Source: Eubacteriales bacterium
GTDB taxonomy: Bacteria > Bacillota > Clostridia > Saccharofermentanales > DTU023
Length of the DNA: 64,000 nt
Assembly (NCBI GenBank): GCA_030537595.1
Contig: JAUNVR010000002.1
Coordinates: forward strand, 5,750 to 69,749
Direction of reading: 5' to 3'
The notes beneath the pieces were generated by a model that made no database searches, was not told the origin of the DNA, and saw nothing but the letters and a program-made list of their open reading frames with translations. Shown here in pieces: positions 16,415 through 40,302 of the stretch (within the stretch, counting starts at the first letter, position 1; each line of letters begins with the position of its first letter). The position numbers were made by a program, and so were the translations under genes.

Positions 16415-16526
16415 TTATTTAGCCATTTCTAATCATTAAACTCCGACTCAGCAGGCTTGTGTTATAATTAGCTTTGCGCTTTTGCGCAGCTCTAGAAGGA
16501 TTATCTAGTAAAGCGGAGAATATGAA

Positions 16527-17567
16527 ATGCAAGATTTATTAAATGAATTAAAAAACTTAAAAGCTGAATTCGAAACTGGCTTGGACTCAATTAAAGAAAG
16601 CAAAGAGCTGGATGAATTGCGGCTTAAATTCCTCGGAAAAAAAGGCAAAATAACTGCTCAGATGAAGAACATGGCTAAGCTATCGGCAGAAGATAGGCCT
16701 GTTTTCGGGGCGGAGGCGAATCGCTTGCGGCAGCAGATTGAGGCTGCAATCCAGCAGGCGGCCAAGGATTTGGAGTCAGCGCGTAGAGAGCTTCAGTTTA
16801 AGGCTGAAGAGCTAGATGTGACTAGGCCCGGAAGAGCTTTAAAGCGAGGCTTAGCGCATCCCATAACCCAGGTAATTGATGAAATTTCTGAGGTTTTTTT
16901 CAGTCTCGGCTTTGCCTTGGCAGATGGTCCTGAGGTTGAGTTTATTAAGAATAATTTTGACCTACTGAGAATTGCTGAAGGCCATCCAGCACGCGATTTT
17001 CGAGATACCTTCTATATCAATGATGAGGCAGTTTTGAGAACTCAAACTTCTCCAGTGCAGATTAGAACGATGCAAAGCCAGGAGCCACCGATTAAGATAA
17101 TTTGCCCCGGCCGCTGCTACCGTTCAGATACGCCAGACGCCACTCACTCACCAGTCTTCCATCAGATTGAGGGCTTAGTGATTGATCATGGTATTGCAAT
17201 GTCTGACTTAGTCGGCCATTTGGAACTTTTTGCGAAGGCAATCTTTGGTCAAGATACGAAGATTAGATTACGCCCGCATCATTTCCCCTTTACAGAACCA
17301 TCTTGTGAGGTCGATATATCCTGCTGGGCCTGTCACGGTGTAGATAGTGAAAGCTGTTCAACCTGTCGGGGCGAGACCTGGGTTGAAATACTGGGCGCCG
17401 GCATGGTTCATCCGGAGGTTATCGAAAACTGCGGTCTCGATTCTAAAGAGTATTCTGGATTCGCTTTTGGCCTAGGCGTAGAACGGACTGCGATGGGGCG
17501 TTATGGCATTGATGATATCAGACGTTTTTATGAGAACGATCTACGTTTTTTACGGCAGTTTCACTAG
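16527..17567 (+). CDS. pheS: Phenylalanyl-tRNA synthetase alpha subunit
   Basis: 346 aa. Motifs HPARD, FRPHHFPFTEPS and GFAFGLGVER. Confidence 0.95.
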   Translation: MQDLLNELKNLKAEFETGLDSIKESKELDELRLKFLGKKGKITAQMKNMAKLSAEDRPVFGAEANRLRQQIEAAIQQAAKDLESARRELQFKAEELDVTRPGRALKRGLAHPITQVIDEISEVFFSLGFALADGPEVEFIKNNFDLLRIAEGHPARDFRDTFYINDEAVLRTQTSPVQIRTMQSQEPPIKIICPGRCYRSDTPDATHSPVFHQIEGLVIDHGIAMSDLVGHLELFAKAIFGQDTKIRLRPHHFPFTEPSCEVDISCWACHGVDSESCSTCRGETWVEILGAGMVHPEVIENCGLDSKEYSGFAFGLGVERTAMGRYGIDDIRRFYENDLRFLRQFH

Positions 17568-17579
17568 AGGAGTTTAGGC

Positions 17580-19991
17580 ATGCAGATTTCATATAAGTGG
17601 TTATTAGAACAAGTTCCTTATCAAGGGAGTATTGAAGATTTTTGTGAGACCCTTTCTTTGACCGGGACTAAGGTCGAAGCGGTGGAGGAAGCCTTTGCGG
17701 AAATTTCGGGTGTGGTGGTCGGCCAAATTTTGGCGATTGAAGCCCATCCGAATGCAGATCGCCTAAAGCTCTGTGAGCTCGATCTGGGTGATCAGCGATT
17801 ACAGTTAATCACCGCGGCGACTAATGTGGAAGTTGGTCAGAAGGTTCCGGTAGCGACGGTCGGAGCAAGCTTAGCCGGAGGACTGAAAATTAAACGCAGT
17901 AAGATGCGTGGAATTGAGTCCGCTGGGATGCTCTGTTCGATTGCTGAACTCGCTTTAAGTCCTGCAGATTTTCCGGAGGCTGAGGAGGATGGGATTTTTA
18001 TCTTGCCAGCCGCTGCCCCGCTTGGACAGGATGTCCTAGATTATCTAGATTTACGTGATTATTATATTGAGTTTGAAATCACGCCAAACCGGCCAGACTG
18101 CCTATCCCTCGCTGGTTTAGCGCGTGAAGCCGCGGTCAGTTTTAAGCTCGACTTAAAAGCAGAAGATTATAGCTTGGATAAGGTCCTCAGCCCAGGGGCT
18201 AAGGACAGTGCAAGTGAGCTAGAAATCAAGCTAGAGGACAGTAGTGATTGTCCACGCTATTCGGGCTGGATTATTGACGATGTTAAAATCGAAGCTTCTC
18301 CTGCCTGGATGCGGAAACGGCTGCGGGCTAGTGGTATTAGGCCAATTAATAATCTGGTTGATATTACCAACTATGTAATGTTGACTTGTGGCAATCCTTT
18401 GCACGCCTTTGATTACTCAATAATTGAGGGCGGAGAGGTCAATGTGCGTCGAGCTAGGCCTGGGGAAAAGATTAGAACTTTGGACGGGGTCGAGCGCCAG
18501 TTGAGTCCGGAGGAATTAATTATTGCGGATAGTAAAAAACCGCTAGCTGTGGCCGGTGTCATGGGTGGCGAGGAGAGCGAAATTACCGCAGATACTAAGA
18601 CTGTATTTTTGGAAGTGGCAAGCTTTAAGCCTGAACTGGTGCGGAAGGCTTCGCGCAAGCTAGATCTGCGCTCAGACTCATCCTTGCGCTTCGAGCGTGG
18701 GGTTGATCCACAGGCCTTGATTAAGGCCAGAAACCTTGCCTTAAAGCTAATTGTCGAACTGGGTGCGGGTAAGCCGCGGGCTGCAGGTATTCTAGTGGGC
18801 GAAGATTTCCCGCCGAGACGTGAGATTGACTTCGAGCCAGAGGCAATCAATGCGATTCTCGGCCTCGAAGTCGACGAGTCAAAGATGTTAGATATTCTCG
18901 AGCGTTTAGGCTTTGAGATTGTTGCGGAGCTGGGACAGCGCTCGTTAAAGGTGCCAAGTTGGCGCGCTGATGTCGAGGCTGCTGCAGATTTGGCCGAAGA
19001 GGTCGCGCGTTTTGTCGGCTACAATAGCATTACCCCGAGACTTAATTCTGGTCGGGTCAAAGCAGCTGTCAGAAAGAGCCTAGCACAGCAAAGAGAGGCC
19101 GTTATCCGTGAGATTGTACTTGCTGCCGGGGCTTTTGAGGCGATGTCCTCACCCTTTGCCTCAGCTCAAGACTTCGCTGACTTAAATTTGGGCGAAGAAG
19201 CCTTGGCTCAAGCGGTGAAAATTATTAATCCCTTGGGCAAGGAGCGGGAATACTTAGCCCAGAGCATGTTGCCGCGTCTTTTAGAGCATCTTGAAGTCAA
19301 CCAAAGAGAAAAGGAAGCTGAAATCTTCTTTTTTGAACTGGCGCGTAGCTTTAAGTCTGAGGATCAGACTAGAGGACTTCCTTTAGAAGAGAAAACTCTA
19401 AGCCTGATACTTTATCGTGAAGCTGAAAAGGGTAGCGAGACTTTCTTCTTCTTAAAGGGAATTTTAGAGCAGATTGAAGCTGCTATGCACTGTTCTGAAT
19501 GGACTTATAGCCCTGTTGAAAAGCCGTATTATCAGCCGGGTCAGGCTGCTGAAATCAGGGTCAAGGGTGAATTATTAGGCAGTTTAGCTAGGGTGCATCC
19601 GGAGCTTTTAGAAAAGAAAGATGTTAAAGGTCCTGTGCTCTTTGCGGAGTTGAATCTGAGCCGAATTTTCGAGCTTGAGGAGCAGGAATTTAAATTTGTG
19701 AAACCATCACGTTTCCCTGCCTCTGAGCGAGATTTAGCTATCGTAGCTCCCCGTTCTTTCCCTGCGGTTGAAATATTAAAGCTAATCAAAGAGCATGGAG
19801 GCCAGGAATTAAGCGAGGTCGAGCTCTTTGACCATTATGAAGGTGAACGCATCGAAAAGGGTCTAAAATCACTAGCCTACAGTCTGTCTTTCCGCTCTAA
19901 ATCAGCCACGATGAAGGATTCAGATATTGATCGGAGAATTGCAAAGATCGTTGAGGCCCTAGAAGCTAAGGGCTTACACCTAAGAGAGTAG
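17580..19991 (+). CDS. pheT: Phenylalanyl-tRNA synthetase beta subunit
   Basis: 803 aa. N-terminal tRNA-binding OB domain (HPNADRLKLCELD), B3/4 and B5 regions, and a C-terminal FDX-ACB-like domain. It sits immediately after pheS. Confidence 0.95.
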   Translation: MQISYKWLLEQVPYQGSIEDFCETLSLTGTKVEAVEEAFAEISGVVVGQILAIEAHPNADRLKLCELDLGDQRLQLITAATNVEVGQKVPVATVGASLAGGLKIKRSKMRGIESAGMLCSIAELALSPADFPEAEEDGIFILPAAAPLGQDVLDYLDLRDYYIEFEITPNRPDCLSLAGLAREAAVSFKLDLKAEDYSLDKVLSPGAKDSASELEIKLEDSSDCPRYSGWIIDDVKIEASPAWMRKRLRASGIRPINNLVDITNYVMLTCGNPLHAFDYSIIEGGEVNVRRARPGEKIRTLDGVERQLSPEELIIADSKKPLAVAGVMGGEESEITADTKTVFLEVASFKPELVRKASRKLDLRSDSSLRFERGVDPQALIKARNLALKLIVELGAGKPRAAGILVGEDFPPRREIDFEPEAINAILGLEVDESKMLDILERLGFEIVAELGQRSLKVPSWRADVEAAADLAEEVARFVGYNSITPRLNSGRVKAAVRKSLAQQREAVIREIVLAAGAFEAMSSPFASAQDFADLNLGEEALAQAVKIINPLGKEREYLAQSMLPRLLEHLEVNQREKEAEIFFFELARSFKSEDQTRGLPLEEKTLSLILYREAEKGSETFFFLKGILEQIEAAMHCSEWTYSPVEKPYYQPGQAAEIRVKGELLGSLARVHPELLEKKDVKGPVLFAELNLSRIFELEEQEFKFVKPSRFPASERDLAIVAPRSFPAVEILKLIKEHGGQELSEVELFDHYEGERIEKGLKSLAYSLSFRSKSATMKDSDIDRRIAKIVEALEAKGLHLRE

Positions 19992-20054: not shown

Positions 20055-20112
20055 AGTCCTCAGCTGGAAGAATAGATTTATCAAAGTAAATCAGAAAGCT
20101 GAGGACTTTTTA
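20055..20112 (+). terminator. pheT terminator hairpin that also contains the SD of the next ORF
   Basis: An 11-bp outer stem agtcctcagct/agctgaggact (20055-65 and 20097-107), an inner 6-bp stem gattta/taaatc, then T5. GAGGA (20101-05) lies inside the 3' arm, 8 nt before the ATG at 20114. Confidence 0.7.
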
Positions 20113-20113
20113 T

Positions 20114-20401
20114 ATGCAATTTACCCTTGAAACTGCTTTGACAGTACCTTTGACATTGTTGCTGATAGTTTCATGTCTAGTCTACATCCTGCCCTTAGAT
20201 CAGGAGCAGCGAGAGCAGAGCTTGCAAATTGCTGAATGCCTAGTTCTAGCCCAGCAAGCAGATCAGCTTTATGAGCGTAGCTTTAGTCCAAAGGGGCTAG
20301 TCTATGTCGGATCATCAGCCCAACGCACAGTCGAATTTATGACGCTATTTTTAGACTTAAAAGCCTTCCTAAAAGATGGCCTAGATCTTTTTGGGGGTTA
20401 A
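20114..20401 (+). CDS. Small TadE-like membrane-anchored protein
   Basis: 95 aa. The N-terminus MQFTLETALTVPLTLLLIVSCLVYIL resembles the TadE signature (vEfAl.lP.ll.l hydrophobic helix). Confidence 0.45.
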   Translation: MQFTLETALTVPLTLLLIVSCLVYILPLDQEQREQSLQIAECLVLAQQADQLYERSFSPKGLVYVGSSAQRTVEFMTLFLDLKAFLKDGLDLFGG

Positions 20402-20405
20402 GTCA

Positions 20406-21845
20406 ATGCTGCGGAATAAATTGTCTGAAAGAATAGCAGCCAGCTCTTTACTTTTAGTCTTAATTGTCCCTGCCTTTTTTACTGCTTTAATTATGGGTCT
20501 AGAATCAGCCAAAATGAGAGTCTCTGAACTAGACTATCTAAGAGCTCAAAAAGCTGCCGCCGACTATGCTCTGACTCATTACGACCGTGATTTATGGGCG
20601 AATTTTAGGCTCTGGGCGGGCCGTGAGGTCAATGACTTAGAGACAGTTCGGAAAATTTTGCCTAAATTGGAGGGCCTAGATTTAGCAGTTTATAGCGAAA
20701 CGGAGGCCTTTTCGGAGGAAGATCTTCGTGCCCAAATTTTAAAGCAGATGAAGGAGCGCTTACCACTTCAGCTTATGAATCAGTTGCGCTTAAGACTGGA
20801 GCGTTTTGGCAGCCATAGTTCCTCGATTAAGGCGATAACGGATTCAGCCTTAGCTGAAAGTTCAGAAGATAGTCTGGAAGAATTGGAGTTTTGGCGAGCT
20901 GAATTGCTTGGCGATGCGGGCAGTCCGGATGAGGGCGGATTAGATGATTTAGAAGATGATCTAGATGAACTAGAAGATGAAAGCGAATCTGAATCCCAGG
21001 CTGAGCGTAGAGCGAAGAAGCTTTTGGCAAAGCTTTTTTCCGAGCTCGATGAGCAGAAACGATATTTACTCAGTAACTATTCTGCAGAGGAGCTTAATGA
21101 GCTACCCCTAGATAGCTTGAAAGGCTTGGCTTTAATTGGCGATATGGCCCAGTCTTATGCTGATTTTACAGCTCAAGTCGGGCTTGAGAAATTGCAGCTG
21201 ATAGAGTATGTTCTAGCATATTTCCCGGCTGCTGTTACTGTGCAAAAAACTAATGAACAGACGCAGGATATCCTGAGACTTGATGGTCTGCCCCATAGTC
21301 AGCTCAAGGCCAAGTATCCGCAAAATTATGCTGAGATGATTTTGACCGGCTTAAGTGATGCCAAGGCCAAGAAACGGGTTGAATACTATATCTTAGCTCT
21401 CAGACTTGGTGCGCACTATGCATCGCTCAACGGACAGCCAGAGAAAAAACAAAAATATTTAACTTACGGAACTTTGATTTCGGGCTTAATATCCATAGTT
21501 TCACTCGGCAATATCGTAGTTCCCCCTGAAGGAATAGCGCAGGTGATTATCTTTGCAAAAGCTGGTCGTGGCGCTCGCAAAGATTTAAAGCAGCTACTAA
21601 AGGGCAGGGCCGTAGCTTTCTGGCCGCAGAAGGATTTGCAGAAATTTGAAATTTATTACCATGACTTTCTACGTTTTTTCTTCTTGGCCAAAAGCGAAAG
21701 CAAGATTCTTGAACAGCTTGCCCTCCAATTAAAGAGCCTTTTCCCCCAAGCTACTGTCGGAGCCTACCGAATTGAAGCAAGCTTTAAAGATTATGCCAAG
21801 TCTCAGTTTATTGTGGACTACCTTGAAAGAAAGGGGAGCGAGTAA
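20406..21845 (+). CDS. TadG/Tad-domain-like large membrane-anchored protein with an acidic low-complexity insert
   Basis: About 480 aa. The N-terminal helix plus ESAKMRVSELDYLRAQKAAADYAL fits the Flp pilus-assembly TadE/G-like (Tad) N-terminal pattern. It carries a D/E run, DEGGLDDLEDDLDELEDESESES. The C-terminal half (AEMILTGLSD...LRLGAHY...YYHDFLRFFFL) recalls the DUF5702-type proteins of Firmicute tad loci; that comparison is from memory and was not searched. Confidence 0.55.
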   Translation: MLRNKLSERIAASSLLLVLIVPAFFTALIMGLESAKMRVSELDYLRAQKAAADYALTHYDRDLWANFRLWAGREVNDLETVRKILPKLEGLDLAVYSETEAFSEEDLRAQILKQMKERLPLQLMNQLRLRLERFGSHSSSIKAITDSALAESSEDSLEELEFWRAELLGDAGSPDEGGLDDLEDDLDELEDESESESQAERRAKKLLAKLFSELDEQKRYLLSNYSAEELNELPLDSLKGLALIGDMAQSYADFTAQVGLEKLQLIEYVLAYFPAAVTVQKTNEQTQDILRLDGLPHSQLKAKYPQNYAEMILTGLSDAKAKKRVEYYILALRLGAHYASLNGQPEKKQKYLTYGTLISGLISIVSLGNIVVPPEGIAQVIIFAKAGRGARKDLKQLLKGRAVAFWPQKDLQKFEIYYHDFLRFFFLAKSESKILEQLALQLKSLFPQATVGAYRIEASFKDYAKSQFIVDYLERKGSE

Positions 21846-22819
21846 TGAGCTGGCTAAAGAAATTAGAGCGCAAGGAGGCGAGTATTGTGCTCGAGCTGGC
21901 CTTGGCGATTCCAATCTTTCTCTTTGCTGCTTATTTTATGATTTCAGCGATCTTGGCTCAGCGCCAGGCCTTAGTTTTACGTCATGCGCTAGAGCAAACG
22001 GCAAATGAGCTAGAGGTCCTCTTACCCTTAGTTGAAGATGGGGCAGCCTTGCTTTTTGGCGAGGCCCAGGTGGCTGAGTTGATTGCCGAAATCTTGCCGG
22101 AGAACCCGGGGCTTTTAGAGTCTGCAGCCTTAGATTTGGCCTCCTCCGAGCTACTGGGCACTTTTTTACAAGCTCGTGTTGACTACTGGGCTCAAGCCAC
22201 AGCGAGTCAACTGCAGCTAAGATTAGCAGAGCATAATCGGCAGATATTACTTAGTTGGAGAGATGGTGGTCAGAGTCTATTAATGACCTTATATTACGAA
22301 TTGACCACGCCCTGGACTAAGCATGAGCAGCGCAGTTCGGCCTATGTTCCACTCTGGCTTAGTACTAGTGCAGAGGGAGGAAGCGAGGATTCTGATTCCG
22401 AGGATAGAGATAATATCTGGTCTGAGAGTAATTTCACAAGAGGGCGCGAATTTCGGGCTGCCTATGGGGCTAATTTGCCCTTTAATACGCCAGTTATAGC
22501 CTACTATGCGGCAGGGCATGCAAAAGCCATCCGCTCATTAGACTTGACGGCGCCAAGTTATCAAGATAAAGCTCAGGCCAGTGAGCAAATCCTGTATGAG
22601 ATTAAACGCTTAGCCAAGTACCAGGGTGGGAAAATACCGGGTGCTAGAGAGCTAAAAGCTGAGCAGATTCAGCGCAGGGAATTACTTTTGATTATTCCTG
22701 AAAATAGTCCAGCAGAATACTCAGAAGAATTTTGGCAAGCCCAGAAAAGTTTGGCGGCCCAGTATGGGGTGGAGCTGAAGCTAGTGCGTGATCAGAATAG
22801 CTATAGATATGCTGATTAG
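21845..22819 (+). CDS. TadE-like N-terminal anchor fused to an uncharacterized C-terminal globular domain
   Basis: 324 aa with a TAATG overlap onto the upstream gene. The N-terminus RKEASIVLELALAIPIFLFAAYFMISAIL matches the TadE pattern. An acidic linker (GGSEDSDSEDRD) follows, then about 135 aa of unknown function. Confidence 0.55.
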   Translation: MSWLKKLERKEASIVLELALAIPIFLFAAYFMISAILAQRQALVLRHALEQTANELEVLLPLVEDGAALLFGEAQVAELIAEILPENPGLLESAALDLASSELLGTFLQARVDYWAQATASQLQLRLAEHNRQILLSWRDGGQSLLMTLYYELTTPWTKHEQRSSAYVPLWLSTSAEGGSEDSDSEDRDNIWSESNFTRGREFRAAYGANLPFNTPVIAYYAAGHAKAIRSLDLTAPSYQDKAQASEQILYEIKRLAKYQGGKIPGARELKAEQIQRRELLLIIPENSPAEYSEEFWQAQKSLAAQYGVELKLVRDQNSYRYAD

Positions 22820-22927: not shown

Positions 22928-25744
22928 ATGGGATTACTGACCAAAATCTTTGGCACACATTCAGAACGTGAAATTAAAAAGATTAGGCCTATAGTCGATC
23001 AGATTTTAGCCTATGAAGACGAGATGAGAGCTCTGAGCGATTCGGAGCTACAGGCAAAAACGCCTGAATTCAAGGAGCGCTTAGAGCGCGGAGAAACAGT
23101 TGATGATATTCTCCCAGAGGCTTTTGCCGTAGTTCGCGAGGCAGGCGACAGAGTTTTAAAGATGCGCCATTTCCCAGTCCAGCTTTTAGGCGGGATTGTG
23201 CTGCATCAAGGCCGTATAGCTGAAATGAAAACCGGTGAGGGCAAGACCCTGGTGGCGACCTTGCCGCTTTATTTAAATGCCTTAGAAGGCAAGGGCTGCC
23301 ACCTGGTTACGGTTAACGACTATTTGGCAACGCGTGACTCTGAGTGGATGGGTAAGATTTTTAAATTCCTCGGCCTCTCGGTTGGTTTGATCGTTCACGG
23401 CAAGACCAAGGCAGAACGACGTGAGGCTTATGCGGCTGATATTACTTATGGTACGAATAATGAATTCGGCTTTGACTATTTGCGCGACAACATGGTTAAC
23501 CGGAAGGAAAATTTAGCGCAGCGGGAATTGAATTTTGCAATTGTAGACGAGGTTGACTCGATTCTGATTGACGAAGCTAGAACTCCCTTGATTATTTCTG
23601 GGCAGGGTGACGCTTCTTCTGACTTATATACCAAGGCGGATCAGTTTGTCCGTAGCTTGCAGCCGCGGAAACTGCGCGAAGTTGAAACTCGCGAACAGCA
23701 AGAGGCGCTGGAGGAAATCCAAGAAGAATGCGATTACATCATTGATGAAAAGAATAAAACATCAATCCTTAGCCGTCGTGGTGTGCGGAAGGCTGAAAAA
23801 TTCTTTGGGATTGAGAATCTCTCGGACCAAGAAAACTACAAGCTAAATCACCATATCAACAATGCCTTGAAGGCCCACGGTACGATGTTCCGGGACACAG
23901 ATTATGTGGTGGCCGATGATGAAGTAATTATTGTTGACGACTTTACTGGTCGCTTGATGCAGGGTCGTCGCTATTCAAATGGCTTACACCAGGCGATTGA
24001 GGCGAAGGAAGGCGTAAAGGTCCAGCGCGAATCGAGAACCTTGGCGACAATCACCTTCCAGAACTACTTCAGAATGTATAAAAAGCTTTCTGGAATGACT
24101 GGTACAGCCTTAACTGAAGAGGATGAATTCAGAGCGATTTACGAGTTGGATTGTATTGAGATACCGACGAATAAGCCGATCGCACGTGAGGATTTGGCCG
24201 ATGCAGTGTTTAAGTCTGAGGCGGGTAAGTATCGGGCCTTAATCGAGCAGGTTAAGGAATTGCATGCCAAGGGGCAGCCCATTCTGGTCGGTACCGTTTC
24301 AGTCGATCGTTCAGAACTTTTGTCCCAGTTATTCAAGCGAGAAGCATTGGTCCACAATGTGCTAAACGCAAAGCACCATGAGCGAGAAGCAGAAATTGTT
24401 GCTCAGGCAGGACGCTTAGGCGCAATCACTATCGCAACCAATATGGCTGGACGTGGTACGGATATTGTGCTGGGTGGTAACCCTGAGCATATGGCTAAGC
24501 AGGAGATGCGCAAGCAAGGTTATTCTGAAGACTTAATTGAACAGGCCAATGCCTTCAACGAAACTAATGATCAGGTAATTTTAGATGCTAGAGCCAAGTT
24601 CAGAGAGCTCGAAGCTGAATTCAAAAAAGAGACAGAAGCAGAAAAGGAAGCTGTAATTGCTGCCGGAGGACTCTGCATTCTGGGTACTGAAAGACACGAG
24701 TCAAGACGAATTGACAATCAGCTGCGCGGGCGTTCCGGCCGTCAAGGTGATGCTGGTGTATCGAAATTCTACCTCTCTCTTGAGGATGATTTAATGCGCC
24801 TCTTTGGTGGCGAAAGAATGCAGAGAATGTTCGAGACTTTAAGGGTCGACGAAGATATGGAAATCCAAAACCCGATGCTGAGCAGAGGTATAGAGTCTGC
24901 GCAGCGGAAGGTTGAGGCGCAAAACTTCGCCATTCGTAAACATGTCTTAGAATATGACAACGTCATGAATCAACAAAGAGACATCGTTTACAAGCAGAGA
25001 AAAGAAGTATTGGCCGGGAAGGATTTACACGACTGGTTCTTGAAGACCATCTATGACTTGGCTCTGTCTGAGTTCTCGGCTGCCTCGGCAGAGGCCGCAG
25101 AATTAGAAGACTGGGATCATCCAGCGCTTAAATTGCGCCTGAATGACCTTTTCGGTGACCTCGATTATATTGACAGCTTATCAACGATGAGAGGCTATAT
25201 TGAGCCTGAAGAACTGGCGCAAGGCTTACTCGAGGCTGCCAAAGAGAGGCTAGTGGAAAGAACTGCAAGCCTGGAAGATCCAGAGTTAGTTAAGGAAATT
25301 GAGCGCTATATCCTCTTGACAACCGTAGACAACCATTGGATGGATCACATTGATGCAATGGATGATTTACGCGATTCGATCGGGATGCGTGGTTATGCTC
25401 AACACGATCCAGTTGTAGAATACCAAAAGGAAGGCTCGGAAATGTTCCTGGCCATGAATGAGGGGATTAAAGAAGACGCGGTACGTCTTCTAATGCGAGC
25501 CCATTTGGCAGTTGAAGAAAGAAAAGAGCGGAGTGAAAGTGGCTTGAAGGCGGTCCACCGGAGTTCGGATAATGCGTTCTCGGGCAGCCCGCAAATGCAA
25601 AGACAAGCTGCGACGCCCCAGCAGAGCACTCCAGTGAGAAGACAGACTATGCCCGGTCGGAATGATCCCTGCTGGTGTGGAAGTGGGAAAAAGTATAAGA
25701 ATTGTCACTTACGCGAGGATGAGCAAAAGCTGCATGAAGAATAG
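22928..25744 (+). CDS. secA: Preprotein translocase ATPase SecA
   Basis: 938 aa. Motifs MKTGEGKTLVA and DEVDSILIDEARTPLIISG, plus the C-terminal zinc motif CWCGSGKKYKNCH. Confidence 0.97.
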   Translation: MGLLTKIFGTHSEREIKKIRPIVDQILAYEDEMRALSDSELQAKTPEFKERLERGETVDDILPEAFAVVREAGDRVLKMRHFPVQLLGGIVLHQGRIAEMKTGEGKTLVATLPLYLNALEGKGCHLVTVNDYLATRDSEWMGKIFKFLGLSVGLIVHGKTKAERREAYAADITYGTNNEFGFDYLRDNMVNRKENLAQRELNFAIVDEVDSILIDEARTPLIISGQGDASSDLYTKADQFVRSLQPRKLREVETREQQEALEEIQEECDYIIDEKNKTSILSRRGVRKAEKFFGIENLSDQENYKLNHHINNALKAHGTMFRDTDYVVADDEVIIVDDFTGRLMQGRRYSNGLHQAIEAKEGVKVQRESRTLATITFQNYFRMYKKLSGMTGTALTEEDEFRAIYELDCIEIPTNKPIAREDLADAVFKSEAGKYRALIEQVKELHAKGQPILVGTVSVDRSELLSQLFKREALVHNVLNAKHHEREAEIVAQAGRLGAITIATNMAGRGTDIVLGGNPEHMAKQEMRKQGYSEDLIEQANAFNETNDQVILDARAKFRELEAEFKKETEAEKEAVIAAGGLCILGTERHESRRIDNQLRGRSGRQGDAGVSKFYLSLEDDLMRLFGGERMQRMFETLRVDEDMEIQNPMLSRGIESAQRKVEAQNFAIRKHVLEYDNVMNQQRDIVYKQRKEVLAGKDLHDWFLKTIYDLALSEFSAASAEAAELEDWDHPALKLRLNDLFGDLDYIDSLSTMRGYIEPEELAQGLLEAAKERLVERTASLEDPELVKEIERYILLTTVDNHWMDHIDAMDDLRDSIGMRGYAQHDPVVEYQKEGSEMFLAMNEGIKEDAVRLLMRAHLAVEERKERSESGLKAVHRSSDNAFSGSPQMQRQAATPQQSTPVRRQTMPGRNDPCWCGSGKKYKNCHLREDEQKLHEE

Positions 25745-25944: not shown

Positions 25945-26463
25945 ATGGACAAGAAACTTTTAGAAATGACTCAGAATCAAATTCAAATGGAGTACTTCTC
26001 AGGCTACTTATATCTTTCAATGGCTGATTGGCTCGAAAGACAAGATTTACCTGGTGCTGCAAATTGGATGTACATCCAATACCAAGAGGAAGTTTTGCAC
26101 GCACAGGGCTTTATTAAGTTCTTACAGCGCTTAGGCCAACCAATCGCCCTGCGCCAAATTGACCAACCACAGCGCGAGTTTGAGAGCCTGGAAGAGGTCT
26201 TTCAGATGGCATTAGACCATGAGAAGGAAGTTTCAGAGTCAATTCGCAATATGGCCAAGCGGGCTAATGAGGCTGATGAGTTTGAAATGCGTGAGTTCCT
26301 GAACTGGTACATTATGGAGCAGGTTGAGGAAGAAGAAAATGCTGAAGAAAACCTAGCCAATGTTCAACTGATTGGGAATAACCCAGCTGGTCTTTATAGC
26401 CTCGACAAGTCCTGGGCTGCTAGATCATTCGAAGCTGAGGACATTCCTTATATCGAAGGCTAA
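25945..26463 (+). CDS. Non-heme ferritin
   Basis: 172 aa four-helix-bundle ferritin pattern: QIQMEYFSGYLYLSM, QEEVLHAQ, ALDHEKEVS. Confidence 0.85.
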   Translation: MDKKLLEMTQNQIQMEYFSGYLYLSMADWLERQDLPGAANWMYIQYQEEVLHAQGFIKFLQRLGQPIALRQIDQPQREFESLEEVFQMALDHEKEVSESIRNMAKRANEADEFEMREFLNWYIMEQVEEEENAEENLANVQLIGNNPAGLYSLDKSWAARSFEAEDIPYIEG

Positions 26464-26487
26464 GCCTTGATTTAGAAATGTATATAA

Positions 26488-26516
26488 AGAAGAGGAGCTG
26501 CGGCTCCTCTTTTTAT
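26488..26516 (+). terminator. Intrinsic terminator after the ferritin gene
   Basis: agaggagc-tgcg-gctcctct followed by TTTTT. Confidence 0.8.
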
Positions 26517-26569
26517 TTCTGTCATTTGTGAGCTAAAAAACTTTCGAAAATGTCGCAAGTTTAAGCAGC

Positions 26570-26599
26570 AAAAAACCTCGGCAATATGAGCTGCCGAGG
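26570..26599 (-). terminator. Intrinsic terminator after tRNA-Thr (minus strand)
   Basis: cctcggca / tgccgagg stem. The A6 at 26570-75 reads as a T-run on the minus strand. Confidence 0.75.
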
Positions 26600-26606
26600 T
26601 TCTGTC

Positions 26607-26681
26607 TGGAGCCGAAGGTGGGAATTGAACCCACGACCTATTCATTACGAGTGAATTGCTCTACCCCTGAGCCACTTCGGC
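26607..26681 (-). tRNA. tRNA-Thr (anticodon CGU)
   Basis: The reverse complement folds as a cloverleaf: acceptor gccgaag/cttcggc, anticodon stem attca/tgaat with loop cuCGUaa, T arm gtggg-ttcaatt-cccac. CCA is encoded. Confidence 0.9.
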
Positions 26682-26948
26682 ATAGTGCAAACAGAATACC
26701 AAGCCGTGCTCGTAGTGTCAATCCTCTACTTTAGTCACGAGCATAAATTTAAAAACTGGCGTTCTGCACCAATATTTTGTTCTAATATCGGCGGATTTGT
26801 TTTGTCAGTAACTTGTAGAAAAGTTAGCAATGACTTATTATAATTCCGATTGAATTAGTGCCTACTAACTCAGGACGTGAGAACTGGCGCCTTAACTAGT
26901 GCTAGATTCGGGGTCGTGGGTTATTAGTATTGGAGACTGGGGATTAAT

Positions 26949-28409
26949 ATGGCTCAGAAAATTAAATTTAAGGAGCACTGCATTAGTAGACTGCTTGCTC
27001 TCTGTCTAGCATTAGCTTTTATCGCGCTAATGCCAATTTCGATTGTCCAGGCAAAGAAAAGTTATTCAAGCTGGCAGGAGCTGGCTGAGGATATGCACAT
27101 TTGTTTTGAGGAAGCGCTTCAGTTTATCGATGAAGGTGAAATGCGTGCGGCCTACGACAAAATGAATGAAGCCTATTTTGGTCACTATGAGGTGCAGGGT
27201 TTTGAAGCAAACGTAATGAACTACATTGCTTCAAAGCGAGTCAATCACATTGAAGCTCTCTTCCGTGAGATTAAGCATGCCCTCTTAGGTAACTATGAGC
27301 ATCATGAAACTGAGATCAAGGAAAGAATCATCCTGCTCGATGGTAAGGTTTACCGTGATGCGATGGTTCTTGATGGGGTTGCCGACAAGGACTCCGAGGA
27401 TGAGGTCGGGCAAATTGTTTTTGCTGACAATGAGGAGAGTTTGAATATCTTCTTAGCAGCCCTCGGCCTGAGTGAAGATGCTGAAGAGCAAGCAGCAGAT
27501 GGTGAATCTGCACTCGAAGCTGCAGCTGCTGCAAAGGCTGCGGCACAGAGCCAACAGGTTGATCCTGCAGTTAAGAACAGACGTTCCTTTGTAACTTCTT
27601 TTGTCTTAATGCTACGTGAGGGTATGGAGGCGATTCTAGTTTGCGTTGCCATCATTACCTATCTCGTTAAAACCGGCAATGGTCACCTGCGTAAAGCTGT
27701 TTACTACGGCATGCTCGCAGGTTTGGGTGGCAGTATTATTTTAGCCTTCCTCGTCCATCACTTCCTCGGCGGCGTGGGTCAGGAGCTAATTGAAGGCTGG
27801 ACTATGTTCCTCGCCGTAATTGTGCTCTTCTGGGTCAGTAACTGGATGCTCTCTAAGAGTGAGGAAGAGGCCTGGGAAGCTTATATCGAGGGTCAGGTGC
27901 GGCGTTCAATCGATCGGCGGAGCATGATTGGTTTAGTTGGTGCAGCCTTCCTTGCCGTAATTCGTGAAGGGGCTGAGTTAATACTCTTCTATCGGGCTTC
28001 CTTTGGTAGTTCAATGACCAGCTCTAAAGCTGCTATTTATGGTCTGCTCGCTGCAGTTGCCGTCCTAGTTGCAGTCTTTTTAATCCTGCGGTACACTACT
28101 GTTCGCCTACCCTTAAAACCCTTCTTCTTTATCACAAGTATCCTGCTTTATGTGCTGTGTATCAGCTTCATGGGCAAGGGAGTTAAGGAGCTTGCAGAGG
28201 CCGGCGTGATTTCCGGTGTAACAACCATCCCTGCAATGAAGGGCTTCCAGATTGATGCGCTTGGCATCTACGATAGAGCGGAAACAATTATTCCGCAGAT
28301 TATGTTGTTAATTGCTTCTTTGTGGATTTTGATCTCGCATGCTGCGAAGTCGAGAGCTGAGAAGAAGAAATTAAATAAAACCGTTGTCGAATCATCTACC
28401 GACAAGTAG
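26949..28409 (+). CDS. FTR1/EfeU-family high-affinity iron permease with an N-terminal extracytoplasmic domain
   Basis: 486 aa with two REGxE motifs (LREGMEAIL and IREGAELIL) in a 7-TM core. The first ~200 aa form a signal/anchor, a helical domain and an Ala/Glu-rich linker. Confidence 0.85.
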   Translation: MAQKIKFKEHCISRLLALCLALAFIALMPISIVQAKKSYSSWQELAEDMHICFEEALQFIDEGEMRAAYDKMNEAYFGHYEVQGFEANVMNYIASKRVNHIEALFREIKHALLGNYEHHETEIKERIILLDGKVYRDAMVLDGVADKDSEDEVGQIVFADNEESLNIFLAALGLSEDAEEQAADGESALEAAAAAKAAAQSQQVDPAVKNRRSFVTSFVLMLREGMEAILVCVAIITYLVKTGNGHLRKAVYYGMLAGLGGSIILAFLVHHFLGGVGQELIEGWTMFLAVIVLFWVSNWMLSKSEEEAWEAYIEGQVRRSIDRRSMIGLVGAAFLAVIREGAELILFYRASFGSSMTSSKAAIYGLLAAVAVLVAVFLILRYTTVRLPLKPFFFITSILLYVLCISFMGKGVKELAEAGVISGVTTIPAMKGFQIDALGIYDRAETIIPQIMLLIASLWILISHAAKSRAEKKKLNKTVVESSTDK

Positions 28410-28445
28410 ATTTTTCGTACCACAATACGATCAGGAGGATTGTAT

Positions 28446-29207
28446 ATGAAAAAAACATTTATGAGCACCGTATTAGCAATGCTGATGTGCTTGGTCCTAG
28501 TCTTTGGCTTAGTCGCTTGTGACTCACAGAAGCAGGCCGCAGACCCCACAGAAGCACCAGTTGCTGATGCAGAGCCCGCAGTTGAAGCTGAAGCAGAAGA
28601 TGCAGAAGCAGCAGTAGCTGATGAAGCTGAAAAAGCCGAAGAGGCTGAAGCAGAGCAAGCTGGCTCACCGGAGTTACCCGGCGAATCAGGCTTCCTCGAA
28701 ATCGAAATCGGCGACCTGCAGATCGCTGGTCCTTTCCAGGTTCAGTTAGTTTACTTCCAGGGCGTTGATATGATTCCTGCAGGTAAGCAACCCAGCGCTG
28801 ACGAATCAGACATGCACTTGGAAGCTGACATCCACCTCTTACCGGAATTTGCTCCGCAATTCGGTTTTGGTGCTGGTGAAGATATTTGGCCTGCCTACCT
28901 CACTGTTGACTACAAGGTCTTAAGTGAAGATGGTCAGACTGAAATCACCTCAGGTTCAATGATGCCGATGAACGCCGATGACGGCCCTCACTACGGTATC
29001 AATATCAAGAAGGGTTTAATCCCTGTTGGTAAGTATCAGATCGTTCTGGAATTCAGACCTTCAGATGACTACCTGCTGCACGTTGACTCCGAGACCGGCG
29101 TACCTCTGGCACGCACCGAGGGCTTGGATGCAACCTCAACCTACTACGAGCAACAAACTGTTACAGTTGAGTGGAACTACACCGGTGAACAGCTCGAAAA
29201 CAAATAA
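28446..29207 (+). CDS. P19/Tp34/FetP-type iron-transport lipoprotein
   Basis: Lipobox GLVAC and an Ala/Glu-rich tether. The metal-site motifs MHLEADIHLL and DDGPHYGINI are typical of the P19/Tp34 family. The ATG at 28446 lies 7 nt after the AGGAGG. Confidence 0.8.
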   Translation: MKKTFMSTVLAMLMCLVLVFGLVACDSQKQAADPTEAPVADAEPAVEAEAEDAEAAVADEAEKAEEAEAEQAGSPELPGESGFLEIEIGDLQIAGPFQVQLVYFQGVDMIPAGKQPSADESDMHLEADIHLLPEFAPQFGFGAGEDIWPAYLTVDYKVLSEDGQTEITSGSMMPMNADDGPHYGINIKKGLIPVGKYQIVLEFRPSDDYLLHVDSETGVPLARTEGLDATSTYYEQQTVTVEWNYTGEQLENK

Positions 29208-29221
29208 GCAATAAACCTTAT

Positions 29222-29264
29222 AGCAAACGGAGTAGGAGATTTTCTGCTGCTCCGTTTGCTTTTT
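29222..29264 (+). terminator. Strong hairpin plus T-run between the P19 gene and the DUF2318 gene
   Basis: agcaaacggag / ctccgtttgct forms an 11-bp stem with a 17-nt loop, followed by TTTTT. Confidence 0.75.
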
Positions 29265-29288
29265 ACTTAATCAAGAGGGGTCATATAA

Positions 29289-30596
29289 TTGTCAGATTTT
29301 TTTATTGAAATCATTCGCTACTTACTAGCCCCGAGTATCCTGCTTGCTGTCATTGCTGGTTTTTGCCTGCATTATGGACAGAAGTATGAACGCTTGCTGG
29401 CCGCTGTCCTTGCGGGAGGCGGGCTATTTTTCAGTTTAGGGATTTACACTGCAAAACGTTTGCAGCCAAAGAAGCTCCTAAAAACCTTAACCAGGCTTAA
29501 TCGCCAGCTTTTGGCAGCAGCTTTTATCCTTTTGCTGCTTGCGATTATTGTCTTTGTAATTTTTATTTTATTTGCGCGGCGTGCGCGCGCTGAAGGCGAT
29601 GAGAAAAAGGCTTTTTCCAAAGTACTTGGATCATTATTTATCATTCTTTCCAGCCTGGCATTTGGAGCTATCCTGGCCAGCAGTTTACCCTTTGTACTCC
29701 TGAAAACTAAGGAGTTTGTCGCTTTCGGTGAAGATTCCTTCGGGACCTCTTCTCTCTTTAGGGTCGGCGGTTACTTGAGTGGTGCGCTCGTGCTCTTCAT
29801 GTTGGGTCTTTCTCTTTTCCAACTGTATCGGCGCTTAAGTAAGGCTCCTTTTAATCTTTTTGCCTTGCTGATTCTGCTGGCTTTAGACTTTGACTATGCT
29901 TTAAAGGGGATTAGTGCCCTGGCTCGTCTGCATATTCTGAAAAGTAGTAATGACCTAGTTTTCAGGGTGATGATTTTAGACGATAAGAGCCTCGGATTAA
30001 ATGCCTTCATATATTTGGCCGTGATTAGCATGACTGCGCTTTATGTTTATTTCACGCATCGCCATTTAAAGGGCGAATTTGCGACACCGGCACGCCGTAG
30101 AAAGGCGCGGTGGTGGTTAAGAAATTGTCGTCGTTGGTCAGTTTCTGCAGTCGTCTTTATCTTAATTTCTTACCTAGCCGTTACGGTGCTTTTGGCCTAT
30201 GTCAGTCGGCCGGTTGTTTTGACACCGCCTCAGGAATATCAGGAAACTAAGGACTTAATCATTATTCCACTCGAGGATGTTGATGATGGTCACCTCCATC
30301 GTTTCTCCTATGAATTCGAGGGCCATGATATTCGCTTTATCATCGTTAAAAAGCCTCAAGGCAGTGCCTATGGAGTCGGCCTCGATGCCTGTGATATCTG
30401 TGGTGTGGCAGGTTACTATGAGCGGAATGATGATGTTATTTGTAAACGCTGCGACGTGGTGATGAATAAGGCGACAATCGGTTTTAAAGGTGGCTGTAAT
30501 CCGGTACCTTTTAACTACGATTTAAAAGATGGCCAGATTATTATTGAAAAGACCGTGCTCGAGGCGGAAAAGAATCGTTTCCCGATTGGCCGTTAA
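29289..30596 (+). CDS. DUF2318-type polytopic membrane protein with a C-terminal Cys-rich (CxxC...CxxC) domain
   Basis: 435 aa with a TTG start and about 7 hydrophobic helices. The soluble C-terminus reads GLDACDICGVAGYYERNDDVICKRCDVVM...GGCNP. It occupies the same position as Cj1660/FlcA in P19 loci. Confidence 0.7.
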   Translation: MSDFFIEIIRYLLAPSILLAVIAGFCLHYGQKYERLLAAVLAGGGLFFSLGIYTAKRLQPKKLLKTLTRLNRQLLAAAFILLLLAIIVFVIFILFARRARAEGDEKKAFSKVLGSLFIILSSLAFGAILASSLPFVLLKTKEFVAFGEDSFGTSSLFRVGGYLSGALVLFMLGLSLFQLYRRLSKAPFNLFALLILLALDFDYALKGISALARLHILKSSNDLVFRVMILDDKSLGLNAFIYLAVISMTALYVYFTHRHLKGEFATPARRRKARWWLRNCRRWSVSAVVFILISYLAVTVLLAYVSRPVVLTPPQEYQETKDLIIIPLEDVDDGHLHRFSYEFEGHDIRFIIVKKPQGSAYGVGLDACDICGVAGYYERNDDVICKRCDVVMNKATIGFKGGCNPVPFNYDLKDGQIIIEKTVLEAEKNRFPIGR

Positions 30597-30621
30597 ATCC
30601 GGAAAGTGATAGGAGATAAGC

Positions 30622-31905
30622 ATGTTTTGGAGAATGGTTCGCGGAACCTTATTCCGACAAAAAAGCAAGATGTTAATGATTGCCTTTACCGTGGCTTTGG
30701 GTATTTCGCTCTGTACTGCAATGATGAACGTAATGCTCGGAGTTGGTGATAAAATAAATCAGGAATTAAAGACCTACGGTGCCAATATCAACGTGGTGCC
30801 AAAGGATGCTTCCTTATTGGATGATCTTTATGGTATTTCGGAAGGTGTCGGGGTCAGTGATAAGTTCTTAAATGAAGAAGACGTGCCCAAGATAAAACAA
30901 ATTTTCTGGGGCTTTAATATTGTCGATTTTGCGCCCTTTTTAAATGTCAAAGCTCAGTCTGATGATTTAGGGCAAGAGATAAATGTAATGGGCACCTGGT
31001 TCAAAAAAGAATTTGTTTTGCCAACTGGTGAAGATGTAGTAGCCGGGATTAGCAGCATGAAGAACTGGTGGACAGTTGAAGGTGAGTGGTTACAGGACTC
31101 GGATTCAGAGGGAATTATGCTCGGCAGTTTAATTGCCGGGCGCAATGGTTTAAAACTAGGCGATAAACTCAGCCTGAGTAGTGCCGGCGGTGAAAAGACT
31201 TTTCTAGTGCGCGGTATTATCCAGGCTGGTGGGCCAGAAGATGAGGAAGTTTTCATGAATCTGGCGAGTGCGCAAGCTATTTCTGGGCTTGAAGGCAAGG
31301 TCTCGAGTATCGAGGTCTCAGCCCTGACGACCCCGGATAATGACTTGGCTAGAAAGGCCTCCCAAAACCCTAAATCCCTGACGCCTTCGGAATATGATGT
31401 CTGGTATTGTACAGCCTATGTCAGTTCGATTTGCTACCAGATTCAGGAGGTTGTCAGCGATGCTGTTGCCAAGCCAATCCGGCAGGTCGCTGAATCGGAG
31501 GGGACGATCTTGAATAAGACCCAACTTCTGATGCTTCTGATTACAATTCTCTCCTCAATCGGCTCAGCCTTAGGTATTAGCAATCTAGTTACAGCCTCAG
31601 TAATTGAAAGAAGGCAGGAAATTGGCCTAATCAAGGCAATTGGTGGTCGCGATATCAGAATCGTGCTCCTAATCCTGACAGAAATTTTATTAACAGGCTT
31701 ATTCGGTGGTGTCCTTGGCTACTTTGCTGGCTTAGCATTTACCCAGATCATCGGTCTGACCGTCTTTGGCTCACGAATTCCTCTGGCCCCGATGGTTATC
31801 CCAATCGACTTAGTCCTCTTATTAGCGGTAATCCTGATTGGTAGTATCCCCTCAATTCGCTATTTATTAAGACTAAAGCCGACAGAAGTTCTCCACGGGA
31901 GGTAG
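30622..31905 (+). CDS. FtsX/MacB-type ABC permease (first of a pair)
   Basis: 427 aa with an N-terminal TM helix, a large extracytoplasmic domain, and a C-terminal 3-TM FtsX domain (ERRQEIGLIKAIGG). Confidence 0.85.
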   Translation: MFWRMVRGTLFRQKSKMLMIAFTVALGISLCTAMMNVMLGVGDKINQELKTYGANINVVPKDASLLDDLYGISEGVGVSDKFLNEEDVPKIKQIFWGFNIVDFAPFLNVKAQSDDLGQEINVMGTWFKKEFVLPTGEDVVAGISSMKNWWTVEGEWLQDSDSEGIMLGSLIAGRNGLKLGDKLSLSSAGGEKTFLVRGIIQAGGPEDEEVFMNLASAQAISGLEGKVSSIEVSALTTPDNDLARKASQNPKSLTPSEYDVWYCTAYVSSICYQIQEVVSDAVAKPIRQVAESEGTILNKTQLLMLLITILSSIGSALGISNLVTASVIERRQEIGLIKAIGGRDIRIVLLILTEILLTGLFGGVLGYFAGLAFTQIIGLTVFGSRIPLAPMVIPIDLVLLLAVILIGSIPSIRYLLRLKPTEVLHGR

Positions 31906-31908
31906 AAT

Positions 31909-33111: not shown

Positions 33112-33120
33112 GAGTTTAAT

Positions 33121-33876: not shown

Positions 33877-33950
33877 TAGCTAGCTTGAATTAAGCTTATA
33901 ATGAAATTAGCTTGCTGAACTAAGATTCACCAGCTTAAGGGAGGAAAATT

Positions 33951-34388
33951 ATGAAAGAGAAAATTTTAAGTAGAAGTACTACTTTAATCGCAGCCCTATT
34001 AGTCCTACTGATGGCTTCTGCGCTGTTTAGTGCCTGCTCGAAAAAGGCCAAGTTCAATCCTGAGCAGCTAAAAGATGGCAGTTATACTGGAGAGTTCGTT
34101 GATGATGATGAGAATCCTTCCAGAGTAGAGGTCGAATTGACCATCGAGGGTGGGAAGATTATTAAATGTGAGGCTGCAGAATATGATCACAATGGCAATT
34201 TGAAGGCCGAGGAATATGCTGCAATTAGTCCTGAGGCTGCGAAGGCAGTTGAGGGTATGAGAGAGTATCCGGACTTGCTTTTAAAGGCTCAAGATCCGGA
34301 CACAATTGATGCCGTCTCCGGAGCGACAATTTCTTTGGATCGTTTCAAAGCGGCGGTCTGGGATGCATTAAAGAAAGCAGAAAATTAG
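33951..34388 (+). CDS. FMN-binding-domain lipoprotein with a flavinylation motif
   Basis: 145 aa with lipobox LFSAC. The C-terminal DAVSGATIS (nt 34308-34334) matches the D-x-x-[ST]-G-A-[TS] site where FMN is covalently attached in NqrC/RnfG/PplA-type FMN_bind domains. Confidence 0.75.
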   Translation: MKEKILSRSTTLIAALLVLLMASALFSACSKKAKFNPEQLKDGSYTGEFVDDDENPSRVEVELTIEGGKIIKCEAAEYDHNGNLKAEEYAAISPEAAKAVEGMREYPDLLLKAQDPDTIDAVSGATISLDRFKAAVWDALKKAEN

Positions 34389-34440
34389 CTGCCTTTCAGC
34401 CCGCCAATAAGGGCCGTAAATAATTCCAATTAGAGAAGAG

Positions 34441-34899: not shown

Positions 34900-34907
34900 G
34901 TGTTTCA

Positions 34908-40300: not shown

Positions 40301-40302
40301 AG

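Follow-up and report, generated by a model that had tools for sequence, protein, structure and literature searches.

Why should three tightly packed genes that appear to encode pilus subunits lie between pheT and secA, with no pilus machinery recognisable around them? The question is raised by a stretch of 64,000 nucleotides from Eubacteriales bacterium, a member of the clostridial order Saccharofermentanales (GenBank assembly GCA_030537595.1, contig JAUNVR010000002.1, positions 5,750 to 69,749 of the forward strand), which is referred to in what follows as the window; all positions are counted from its first nucleotide unless another locus is named. A preliminary description of the window, made from the nucleotide sequence and its open reading frames (ORFs), had singled out the three genes as an orphan TadE/TadG-like module wedged between pheT and secA. 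We found the genes and their flanks just where it had placed them:

20114-20401, forward strand: g1, a 95-residue ORF for a TadE-like pseudopilin without a leader
20406-21845, forward strand: g2, 479 residues from the ATG that is the NCBI start; a DUF5702 protein and large pseudopilin-like subunit
20391, forward strand: an alternative TTG start of g2, giving 484 residues
21845-22819, forward strand: g3, a 324-residue ORF for a modular TadE-like pseudopilin
16527-19991: pheS/pheT (pheT 17580-19991), the upstream flank of the trio
22928-25744: secA, the downstream flank of the trio

The junctions are also exactly as described. The g1 stop codon is followed by GTCA and then by the g2 ATG, which leaves a gap of 4 nt (or an overlap of 11 nt if the TTG is the start), and g2 and g3 share a TAATG overlap; the N-terminal strings that had been quoted are present in the products of the three genes.

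Our answer is that the trio very probably consists of Tad-derived minor-pilin genes. In Saccharofermentanales these genes are detached from the core genes of the system and are inherited at a fixed place upstream of secA. The whole account, in which the trio supplies the tip or priming minor pilins for a Tad (type IVc) pilus of the Firmicute Flp1 type with a core encoded elsewhere, is the one that we favor, and we regard it as reasonably probable. Its weakest step is that of a split tad system; we infer that the core most likely lies elsewhere in the genome.

The evidence that carries the identification comes from two loci, L067 (a Tissierellia metagenome-assembled genome and the most distant of the genome matches) and L068 (a JGI metagenome contig), in which homologues of the trio lie inside complete Flp1-type tad operons. 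The order in both is a T2SSE/CpaF gene (E=1e-47 in L067 and 6e-57 in L068), two T2SSF genes, Flp1_like (56 and 54 bits), a g1-like pseudopilin with the site G↓AVALVE or G↓SVQIIE (the arrow marks the prepilin cleavage position), a DUF5702 g2 (77 and 155 bits; E=6e-23 and 2e-35 with our trio hidden Markov model, HMM) and finally a g3 homologue (E=2e-18 and 5e-25 with the trio HMM). A TadZ-like receiver/ATPase gene stands at the start of the operon in L068 only, and at its end g3 is followed by a Peptidase_A24 gene and then by a gene for a TPR protein. Since the same g1-g2-g3 set occupies this position in the two tad operons, the trio corresponds to the distal minor-pilin genes of a Firmicute tad operon. 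We also observed in L068 an extra 175-residue ORF between g2 and g3 (9505-10032) with a lipoprotein-like N-terminus (LFLFSAC); it has no counterpart in the detached trios. That the module is of the TadE/TadG type, as had been proposed, is thus borne out by this gene order, by TadE matches (E<=1, best E=2.7e-5) in 12 of 18 homologues of g3, and by the G/A-X4-E/F signature, which was found for all three proteins.

Profile searches with the window proteins themselves gave a divided result. Among the families that the preliminary description had named, DUF5702 (PF18960) was matched by window g2 with 32.3 bits (cutoff 26) and by five of six g2 homologues (best E=7.6e-42), but neither TadE (PF07811) nor Tad (PF13400) was significantly matched by any of the three proteins. 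Window g3 reached 11.6 bits with the TadE model (cutoff 22.9, E=0.31). The Tad model gave no match with window g2, and its matches elsewhere were weak (E=0.24 in one of six g2 homologues, E=0.43 in the g2 of L067). For window g1 there was no Pfam match, and NCBIfam produced noise-level matches only for the trio, such as ComGE with E=0.08 for g1; the g1 of a homologous locus (L002) scored 20.0 bits with the TadE profile. By the profile criterion alone the Tad assignment would therefore be doubtful, and it is the comparative evidence that settles the identity.

How general is the arrangement seen in the window? Our survey covered the contexts of six homologues and 54 species-level genome loci, analysed with our own HMMs for g1, g2 and g3. 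The g2 and g3 genes are adjacent in every locus, with a short g1 ahead of them wherever sequence is available (positional homologues of g1 occur in every locus that has room for them), and homologues of each trio gene, 22-59% identical and in the same order, occur in more than 50 species-level genomes. In about 45 of the species-level genomes the order is mreC-mreD-PBP2-mgsA-like-MBL-(pheS-pheT)-g1-g2-g3-(trpR-like)-secA. The genomes with the detached trio belong to the order Saccharofermentanales, including Fastidiosipilaceae, Mageeibacillus, Saccharofermentans and the 'Ruminococcaceae bacterium' strains AB4001 and YRB3002. The "orphan" status of the trio and its conservation among relatives are thus both upheld, and since the detached state is lineage-wide, we are not dealing with a contiguous tad locus that was disrupted only in the window genome.

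The trio keeps its order and place across these approximately 45 species while identity falls to about 25%, which we take as the mark of purifying selection. The trio belongs to the core genome, in single copy, and is inherited vertically. Its G+C content and skew equal those of the flanks and thus do not suggest a recent acquisition; no frameshifts were seen in the trio of the window. A second, long-form group of homologues is found in unrelated contexts; its g1, g2 and g3 products are of 200-260, 750-940 and 355-444 residues, respectively. With regard to the intervening trpR-like gene (PF01371), we observed it between g3 and secA in L009/L010 (L009 11177-11524) and in L012/L013 (L012 11136-11453). 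Gaps of 0.5-0.8 kb between g3 and secA, the right size for such a gene, occur in many other loci, but not in the window and its closest relatives.

If the trio still served a pilus, its prepilin signals should be telling. The Tad prepilin consensus is G/A-X4-E/F, with hydrophilic residues before it and a hydrophobic stretch after it (PMC12607857). The g2 protein has a class III signal of this kind, KLSERI-A↓ASSLL, with a basic leader and then a hydrophobic helix. In the secA-linked homologues of g2 the residue at -1 is Gly in 43 of 48 and Ala in 5 of 48 (Ala in the window), the residue at +5 is Phe or Leu, and the leader is basic. The g3 signal reads KLERKE-A↓SIVLE-LALAIPIFLF. Its -1 residue in the secA-linked homologues is Gly in at least 40 of 48 and Ala in about 7 of 48 (again Ala in the window), and Glu at +5 is present wherever the motif could be located. 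Among the best 164 sequences of the wider g3 family the residue at -1 is Gly in 124 and Ala in 21, and the leader has a median length of 13 residues. The Gly and Ala proportions at -1 are the same in the secA-linked and the wider g3 family, and the detached copies thus give no indication that the cleavage site has come under weaker selection. The retention of G/A at -1 and of E/F at +5 in g2 and g3 favors a split locus whose products are still processed and assembled.

The g1 protein departs from this pattern, a feature that, like the degenerate nuclease domain of g3 described below, the preliminary description had not picked up. Its start, MQFTLE-TALTVPLTLLLIV, places the initiator Met at -1 of the prepilin cleavage site and Glu at +5, followed by a hydrophobic helix. 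All secA-linked g1 proteins begin M-x-x-[ST]-[IL]-E or MSTLE, with Met where the Gly of the -1 site is expected, and no upstream in-frame start codon is available in at least 17 of the secA-linked genomes, the window included. The g1 proteins of the long-form and Tad-linked loci, by comparison, have a normal leader and the site G↓SxTxE. Methionine aminopeptidase removes the initiator Met when residue 2 is Ala, Gly or Ser. Residue 2 of g1 is one of these three in most genomes, so that Met removal would leave an N-terminus like that of a processed pseudopilin; in the window it is Gln, and here the Met is probably kept. We found no description in the literature of leaderless pilins, nor of a pseudopilin whose start codon lies at the prepilin cleavage site. 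Because the iterated g1 HMM drifted into g3 (the TadE-like N-terminus is common to g1 and g3), the homology of g1 to Tad-linked g1 rests on position, size and motif only. A related observation is that in one secA-linked locus, L061, the g3 protein (9548-10513) is almost leaderless and starts MASISLEAALALP (MASISLE); this protein may be taking the course that g1 took.

Two features stand out within the large subunit g2:

21171-21674, forward strand: the conserved DUF5702 core of g2, residues 256-423
20928-20999, forward strand: the acidic low-complexity run of g2, DEGGLDDLEDDLDELEDESESESQ, residues 175-198 of the 479-residue form

The acidic run had already caught the eye in the preliminary description, which reported it in a middle protein of about 480 residues. 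It is indeed there, with 14 Asp or Glu in 24 residues (the protein has 479 or 484 residues, depending on the start), and it lies within a variable, indel-rich region and is unconserved among homologues. Word-index searches with g2 alone and with a six-sequence g2 profile returned only g2 itself and one homologue, probably because low-complexity acidic words crowded out other candidates. A search of the literature on DUF5702 and PF18960 found no papers.

The g3 protein is the most elaborate of the three. In order, it has a leader, the A↓SIVLE site, a hydrophobic helix, a helical and three-stranded module, an acidic linker (residues ~172-186) and a C-terminal domain. The AlphaFold2 model, built from 18 sequences, has a mean predicted local distance difference test score (pLDDT) of 77 and shows a long N-terminal helical region, three strands at 132-169, a disordered, low-confidence acidic linker at 172-186, and an alpha/beta domain at 196-315 with a pLDDT of ~80-97. 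The word-indexed database yielded 19 homologues of g3. An exhaustive search of 1.84 billion cluster representatives with the g3 profile gave 3243 matches at E<=1e-3 and 265 at E<=1e-30, and nearly all of the best 150 representatives are of ~300-490 residues and match most of the profile.

The C-terminal domain of g3 relates to a family of toxins of contact-dependent inhibition (CDI). The domain and a relative by sequence are:

22409-22789, forward strand: C-terminal PD-(D/E)xK-fold domain (residues ~189-315) of g3, CdiA-CT EC869/YPIII-like; its active site is degenerate
37392-44243 of NZ_CP121657.1 (Rhizobium sp. CB3171 plasmid pCB3171_5; locus L076): CdiA-like match

Window g3 scored 26.3 bits against PF21111 (CDI_toxin_EC869_like), for which the cutoff is 27, and 17 of 18 g3 homologues match this model (best E=2.6e-9). 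A Foldseek search of the PDB with the g3 model returned the E. coli TA271/EC869 CdiA-CT (4g6u_A, E=2.4e-8) and the Yersinia pseudotuberculosis CdiA-CT (4zqu_A, E=3.3e-7) and nothing else of significance, and the g3 family profile found 4zqu_A among PDB sequences with E=5e-10. By tblastn, g3 matched the C-terminus of the Rhizobium CdiA-like protein, a 'hemagglutinin repeat-containing protein', with 33% identity and E=2e-8. D198, S209 and K211 are all kept in that domain, and the small hypothetical gene that comes next is likely an immunity gene; no annotated trio was found in a search of the plasmid collection. The GxNLPxNFP and KSLD-type motifs are common to the g3 domain and the CdiA-CT toxins.

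Toxins of the EC869 type are Zn-dependent DNases with the catalytic residues E177, D198, S209 and K211 (PMC9086364). An equivalent of E177 could not be aligned in g3; the other three positions compare with window g3 and with 152 family representatives as follows:

D198 of the toxin: Ala219 in window g3; Ala in 90 representatives, Ser in 41, Asp in 9
S209 of the toxin: Ala in window g3; variable among the representatives
K211 of the toxin: Arg in window g3; Lys in 81 representatives, Arg in 38, His in 11

An S-x-D motif near the active-site positions is invariant. The g3 proteins linked to tad operons (L067 7727-8860 and L068 10001-11110) keep the Asp of D198 and have Tyr at K211; degeneration has taken the opposite course in the detached g3 proteins, with Ala or Ser at D198 and Lys or Arg at K211. 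No immunity-like gene follows g3, the next gene being secA or the trpR-like gene. Judged from these substitutions, the C-terminal domain of g3 is most likely a degenerate, non-catalytic nuclease fold.

The preliminary description had noted an absence of Tad machinery nearby, and this absence was borne out by our searches. Pfam scans of the 20 ORFs in the interval 166-43714 that lacked another identification revealed no T2SSE, T2SSF, Flp or Peptidase_A24 domain; these ORFs turned out to encode housekeeping, iron-uptake and ABC-transport proteins (NFACT, two Prs-like proteins, a GTPase, ComEC, HolA, P19/Ftr, MacB-type permeases and an H+-PPase). A regular expression for the CpaF-type Walker-A motif had a single match in the window, a 251-residue ORF that is too short for such an ATPase and that was not matched by phmmer with two CpaF sequences. 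Finally, two genuine sets of TadZ, CpaF, TadB, TadC, Flp1 and A24 proteins, used as phmmer queries, had no match anywhere in the window.

Given this, how might the trio work? There is precedent for a separation of this kind. In Myxococcus, three of the four tip clusters (Tip1-3) lie away from the core genes (PMC12075869), and the Caulobacter cpaL gene, an 'orphan', lies apart from the main pilus cluster and yet works with that pilus (PMC12607857). Proteins of the TadE/F/G type have been described as heterotrimers at the tip, where they prime Tad pili and leave a variable distal domain exposed (PMC12075869), and TadG/CpaL as the apical subunit, which contributes a C-terminal strand (PMC12918778). 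In our working model g1 would be a small TadE/F-like subunit, g2 the large subunit in the TadG/CpaL position and g3 a second TadE/F-like subunit with a grafted C-terminal domain. Each of the three would insert its hydrophobic N-terminal helix into the membrane; an A24 prepilin peptidase encoded elsewhere would cut g2 and g3 after the G/A at -1, and g1 would bypass this cut as its translation begins at the cleavage position. The three helices would then form a bundle on a TadB/C platform, whose genes would likewise lie elsewhere, and this bundle would prime the polymerisation of the Flp pilin. The trio would end up capping the pilus tip, with the body of g2 and the disabled nuclease-fold domain of g3 displayed as binding modules.

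Several observations weigh against a tip set of this kind. No Tad core, Flp or prepilin peptidase gene was found in the window, and among 53 species loci (about 0.94 Mb) such genes were found within 10 kb of the trio in none but L067. In addition: (i) g1 has no leader peptide, and the loss of a leader could equally signal emancipation from the pilus machinery; (ii) the TadE and Tad models of Pfam stay below threshold on the window proteins, with no match at all for g1 and g2; (iii) the -1 residue is Ala rather than Gly in both g2 and g3 of the window genome; (iv) no vWA domain was found by Pfam in g2 or its homologues, unlike in TadG/CpaL and (v) the structure model of g2, built from a two-sequence alignment, is unusable (pLDDT 31.7).

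The lack of core genes nearby is also what would be expected of a stand-alone exapted complex (the preliminary description had left the choice between such a complex and a split locus), in which the trio, as bitopic proteins, stays in the membrane without a Tad motor, which the order would have lost or would never use for these proteins, and has a role tied to the neighboring cell-wall and secretion genes. The leaderless state of g1 in all secA-linked genomes and the nearly leaderless g3 of L061 fit such a complex, as does the order-wide fixed site of the trio between the genes mreCD-PBP2-mgsA-like-MBL-(pheST) and secA. Nevertheless, we consider it unlikely. Both g2 and g3 retain the G/A at -1, the basic leader and the E/F at +5 as often as the wider family does, which would be unexpected without a peptidase or filament assembly; synteny with housekeeping genes can simply mean that the region rarely rearranges; and detached minor-pilin genes that serve a distant core have already been documented (PMC12075869, PMC12607857). 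A more specific version, which we judge a little less likely again, would have Saccharofermentanales lacking a Tad motor altogether, with the former tip trio exapted as an autonomous core-genome envelope complex in which g1 is "pre-matured" by a translation start at the former cleavage site, the disabled CDI nuclease fold is exposed beyond the membrane, and expression is coupled to that of the pheST-secA region. If this held, it would represent a pseudopilin assembly of a new type, one that is independent of the machinery.

Returning to the pilus-tip account, a further proposal would give it a particular function, namely that the trio tips an Flp pilus or a short pseudopilus used for DNA uptake, with the dead DNase-fold domain of g3 binding DNA. 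The homology of this domain to Zn-dependent DNase toxins is in keeping with the idea, as are the basic residue at the K211 position and the invariant S-x-D in a domain from which the catalytic Asp is gone. Transformation in Micrococcus and DNA uptake in Liberibacter are reported to depend on Flp/Tad pili (PMC4322843, PMC8513845). The window also contains comEC (Competence and Lactamase_B domains) and holA at 5485-9098, about 12 kb 5' of the trio, an observation that bears on this proposal only. However, comEC-holA is followed by asnS/aspS-like genes, radC and mreCD, all housekeeping genes, so that a linkage at such a distance is unspecific, and the PD-(D/E)xK fold also serves non-DNA ligands. 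The proposal amounts to a sub-case of the pilus-tip account with a functional guess added, and as such we regard it as improbable.

Could g3 instead be an active nuclease effector, carried on the pilus tip or released against competitors? Its sequence and fold homology to the EC869/TA271 and YPIII CdiA-CT DNases and to the C-terminus of the Rhizobium CdiA-like protein would suit such a role, and Tad tips do mediate contact-dependent killing in Myxococcus (PMC12075869). We rejected this reading as very improbable on the grounds that the catalytic Asp is lost (the D198 equivalent is Ala in the window and Ala or Ser in 131 of 152 representatives, with Asp in 9 of 152) and that an immunity-like gene is missing after g3. 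The S209 equivalent is variable as well, and the trio is vertically inherited and single-copy, unlike polymorphic toxins. Lastly, that the trio is what is left of a lost tad operon, decaying and without present function, as its detachment from the core genes, the weak scores of the window proteins with the TadE/Tad models and the Ala at -1 in the window genome might suggest, is scarcely credible and was likewise rejected, being largely refuted by intact ORFs, an order, translationally coupled junctions and motifs that are kept in about 45 species at 25-59% identity, and by the lack of frameshifts in the window.

The immediate surroundings of the trio hold one further element that may affect its expression:

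20055-20107, forward strand: hairpin with a U-run, directly 5' of g1 and after pheT; an 11-bp perfect outer stem plus an inner hairpin

The hairpin has a folding energy of -21.7 kcal/mol and a z-score of -4.24, and none of 200 shuffled sequences folds as well. A simple terminator scan did not call it because of its long loop; it is nonetheless probably the terminator of pheST. Its 3' arm contains the Shine-Dalgarno sequence of g1 (GAGGA, 20102-20106), with the AUG of g1 7 nt past the stem, and by enclosing the ribosome-binding site in this way the terminator may also limit g1 translation. An Rfam scan found no T-box or other leader 5' of pheS (16415-16526, an intergenic gap of 112 nt), and the only Rfam matches in the window are three tRNAs, at 26610-26681 (reverse strand), 51877-51949 (forward) and 59461-59532 (forward). 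Further away, two tandem paralogues of 407 residues (2168-3391 and 3402-4625, both on the reverse strand) carry the phosphoribosyl pyrophosphate (PRPP)-synthetase domains Pribosyltran_N, Pribosyltran and Pribosyl_synth of Pfam. Directly 3' of secA there is an iron-uptake cluster (25945-36838), in which a 172-residue ORF is ferritin-like and a 486-residue ORF FTR1-like, both as read by eye only. The cluster includes further genes for a P19-type Fe2+ transport protein (PF10634), an FtrD-like protein, three MacB/FtsX permeases, FMN_bind and DUF4418, and at least one ABC ATPase (36143-36838); the ORF at 33121-33876 carries a Walker-A motif.

If the trio is what we think it is, two uncharacterised families, DUF5702 and the g3 family, gain a Tad-tip context; the latter comprises at least 3243 clusters at 50% identity and has no dedicated Pfam model. 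The g3 protein is also instructive with regard to domain evolution, as a case in which a CDI-toxin nuclease fold, catalytically degenerate, was recruited as a graft on a pseudopilin. The leaderless g1 offers a natural test of whether processing by the peptidase matters beyond removal of the leader. On a practical note, the Tad minor-pilin genes in a whole order of rumen, gut and digester Clostridia must be sought outside tad loci. Our search of the literature found nothing on pili of Saccharofermentanales.

How, then, does the trio compare with systems that are already known? At the level of single domains, residues ~189-315 of g3 resemble the EC869(TA271)/YPIII CdiA-CT DNases (PF21111; 4G6U, 4ZQU) in sequence, fold and shared motifs. 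They differ from these in that D198 is replaced by Ala or Ser and S209 is variable, in the absence of an immunity gene and of a CdiA/CdiB, Rhs or similar delivery scaffold, and in the fusion to a pseudopilin. For the fusion itself the nearest likeness is to PilB and PilC of Streptococcus sanguinis, which, like g3, consist of a pilin module with a grafted globular tip domain (PMC12075869, PMC12607857). The graft is a vWA or lectin domain in PilB/PilC, whereas in g3 it is a CdiA-CT-type PD-(D/E)xK fold preceded by a flexible acidic linker, and the Foldseek comparison of the g3 model with PilB (7ba2_A) was not significant (E=0.43).

Closer parallels exist at the level of gene arrangement. The cpaL gene of Caulobacter crescentus (PMC12607857) is, like the trio, Tad minor-pilin-like, located off the main cluster and equipped with the G/A-X4-F/E motif, but it is a single gene with a vWA domain whereas the trio is a set of three genes that moved together, none of them with such a domain. 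The Kil Tip clusters of Myxococcus xanthus (KilL/KilM/KilN; PMC12075869), going by their published description, are like the trio in being three-gene and TadEFG-like, in lying mostly away from the core and in having a variable distal domain at the proposed extremity. They differ in that they belong to a Gram-negative predator, occur as four redundant clusters, are associated with the T3SS* and serve killing; the trio is a single cluster of monoderm fermenters in a fixed housekeeping neighborhood.

The basic comparison remains that with TadE/TadF/TadG (CpaJ/CpaK/CpaL). The window trio is unlike these proteins in having no significant TadE/Tad Pfam match, a DUF5702 subunit without vWA, a leaderless g1, a nuclease-fold g3 and no core gene nearby. 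As in TadE/F/G, however, there are two small and one large pseudopilin with the G/A-X4-E/F signal and a hydrophobic N-terminal helix, and the distant relatives of the trio share with TadE/F/G a position directly after flp and tadBC; the role to be expected of the trio is likewise that of a heterotrimer at the tip or in priming. Detached Tad tip genes are already known from Caulobacter and Myxococcus. What is new here is a Firmicute version with DUF5702 in the TadG position, its order-wide fixation beside secA, a leaderless pseudopilin, and a pseudopilin with a degenerate CDI-toxin nuclease domain that defines a large unannotated family.

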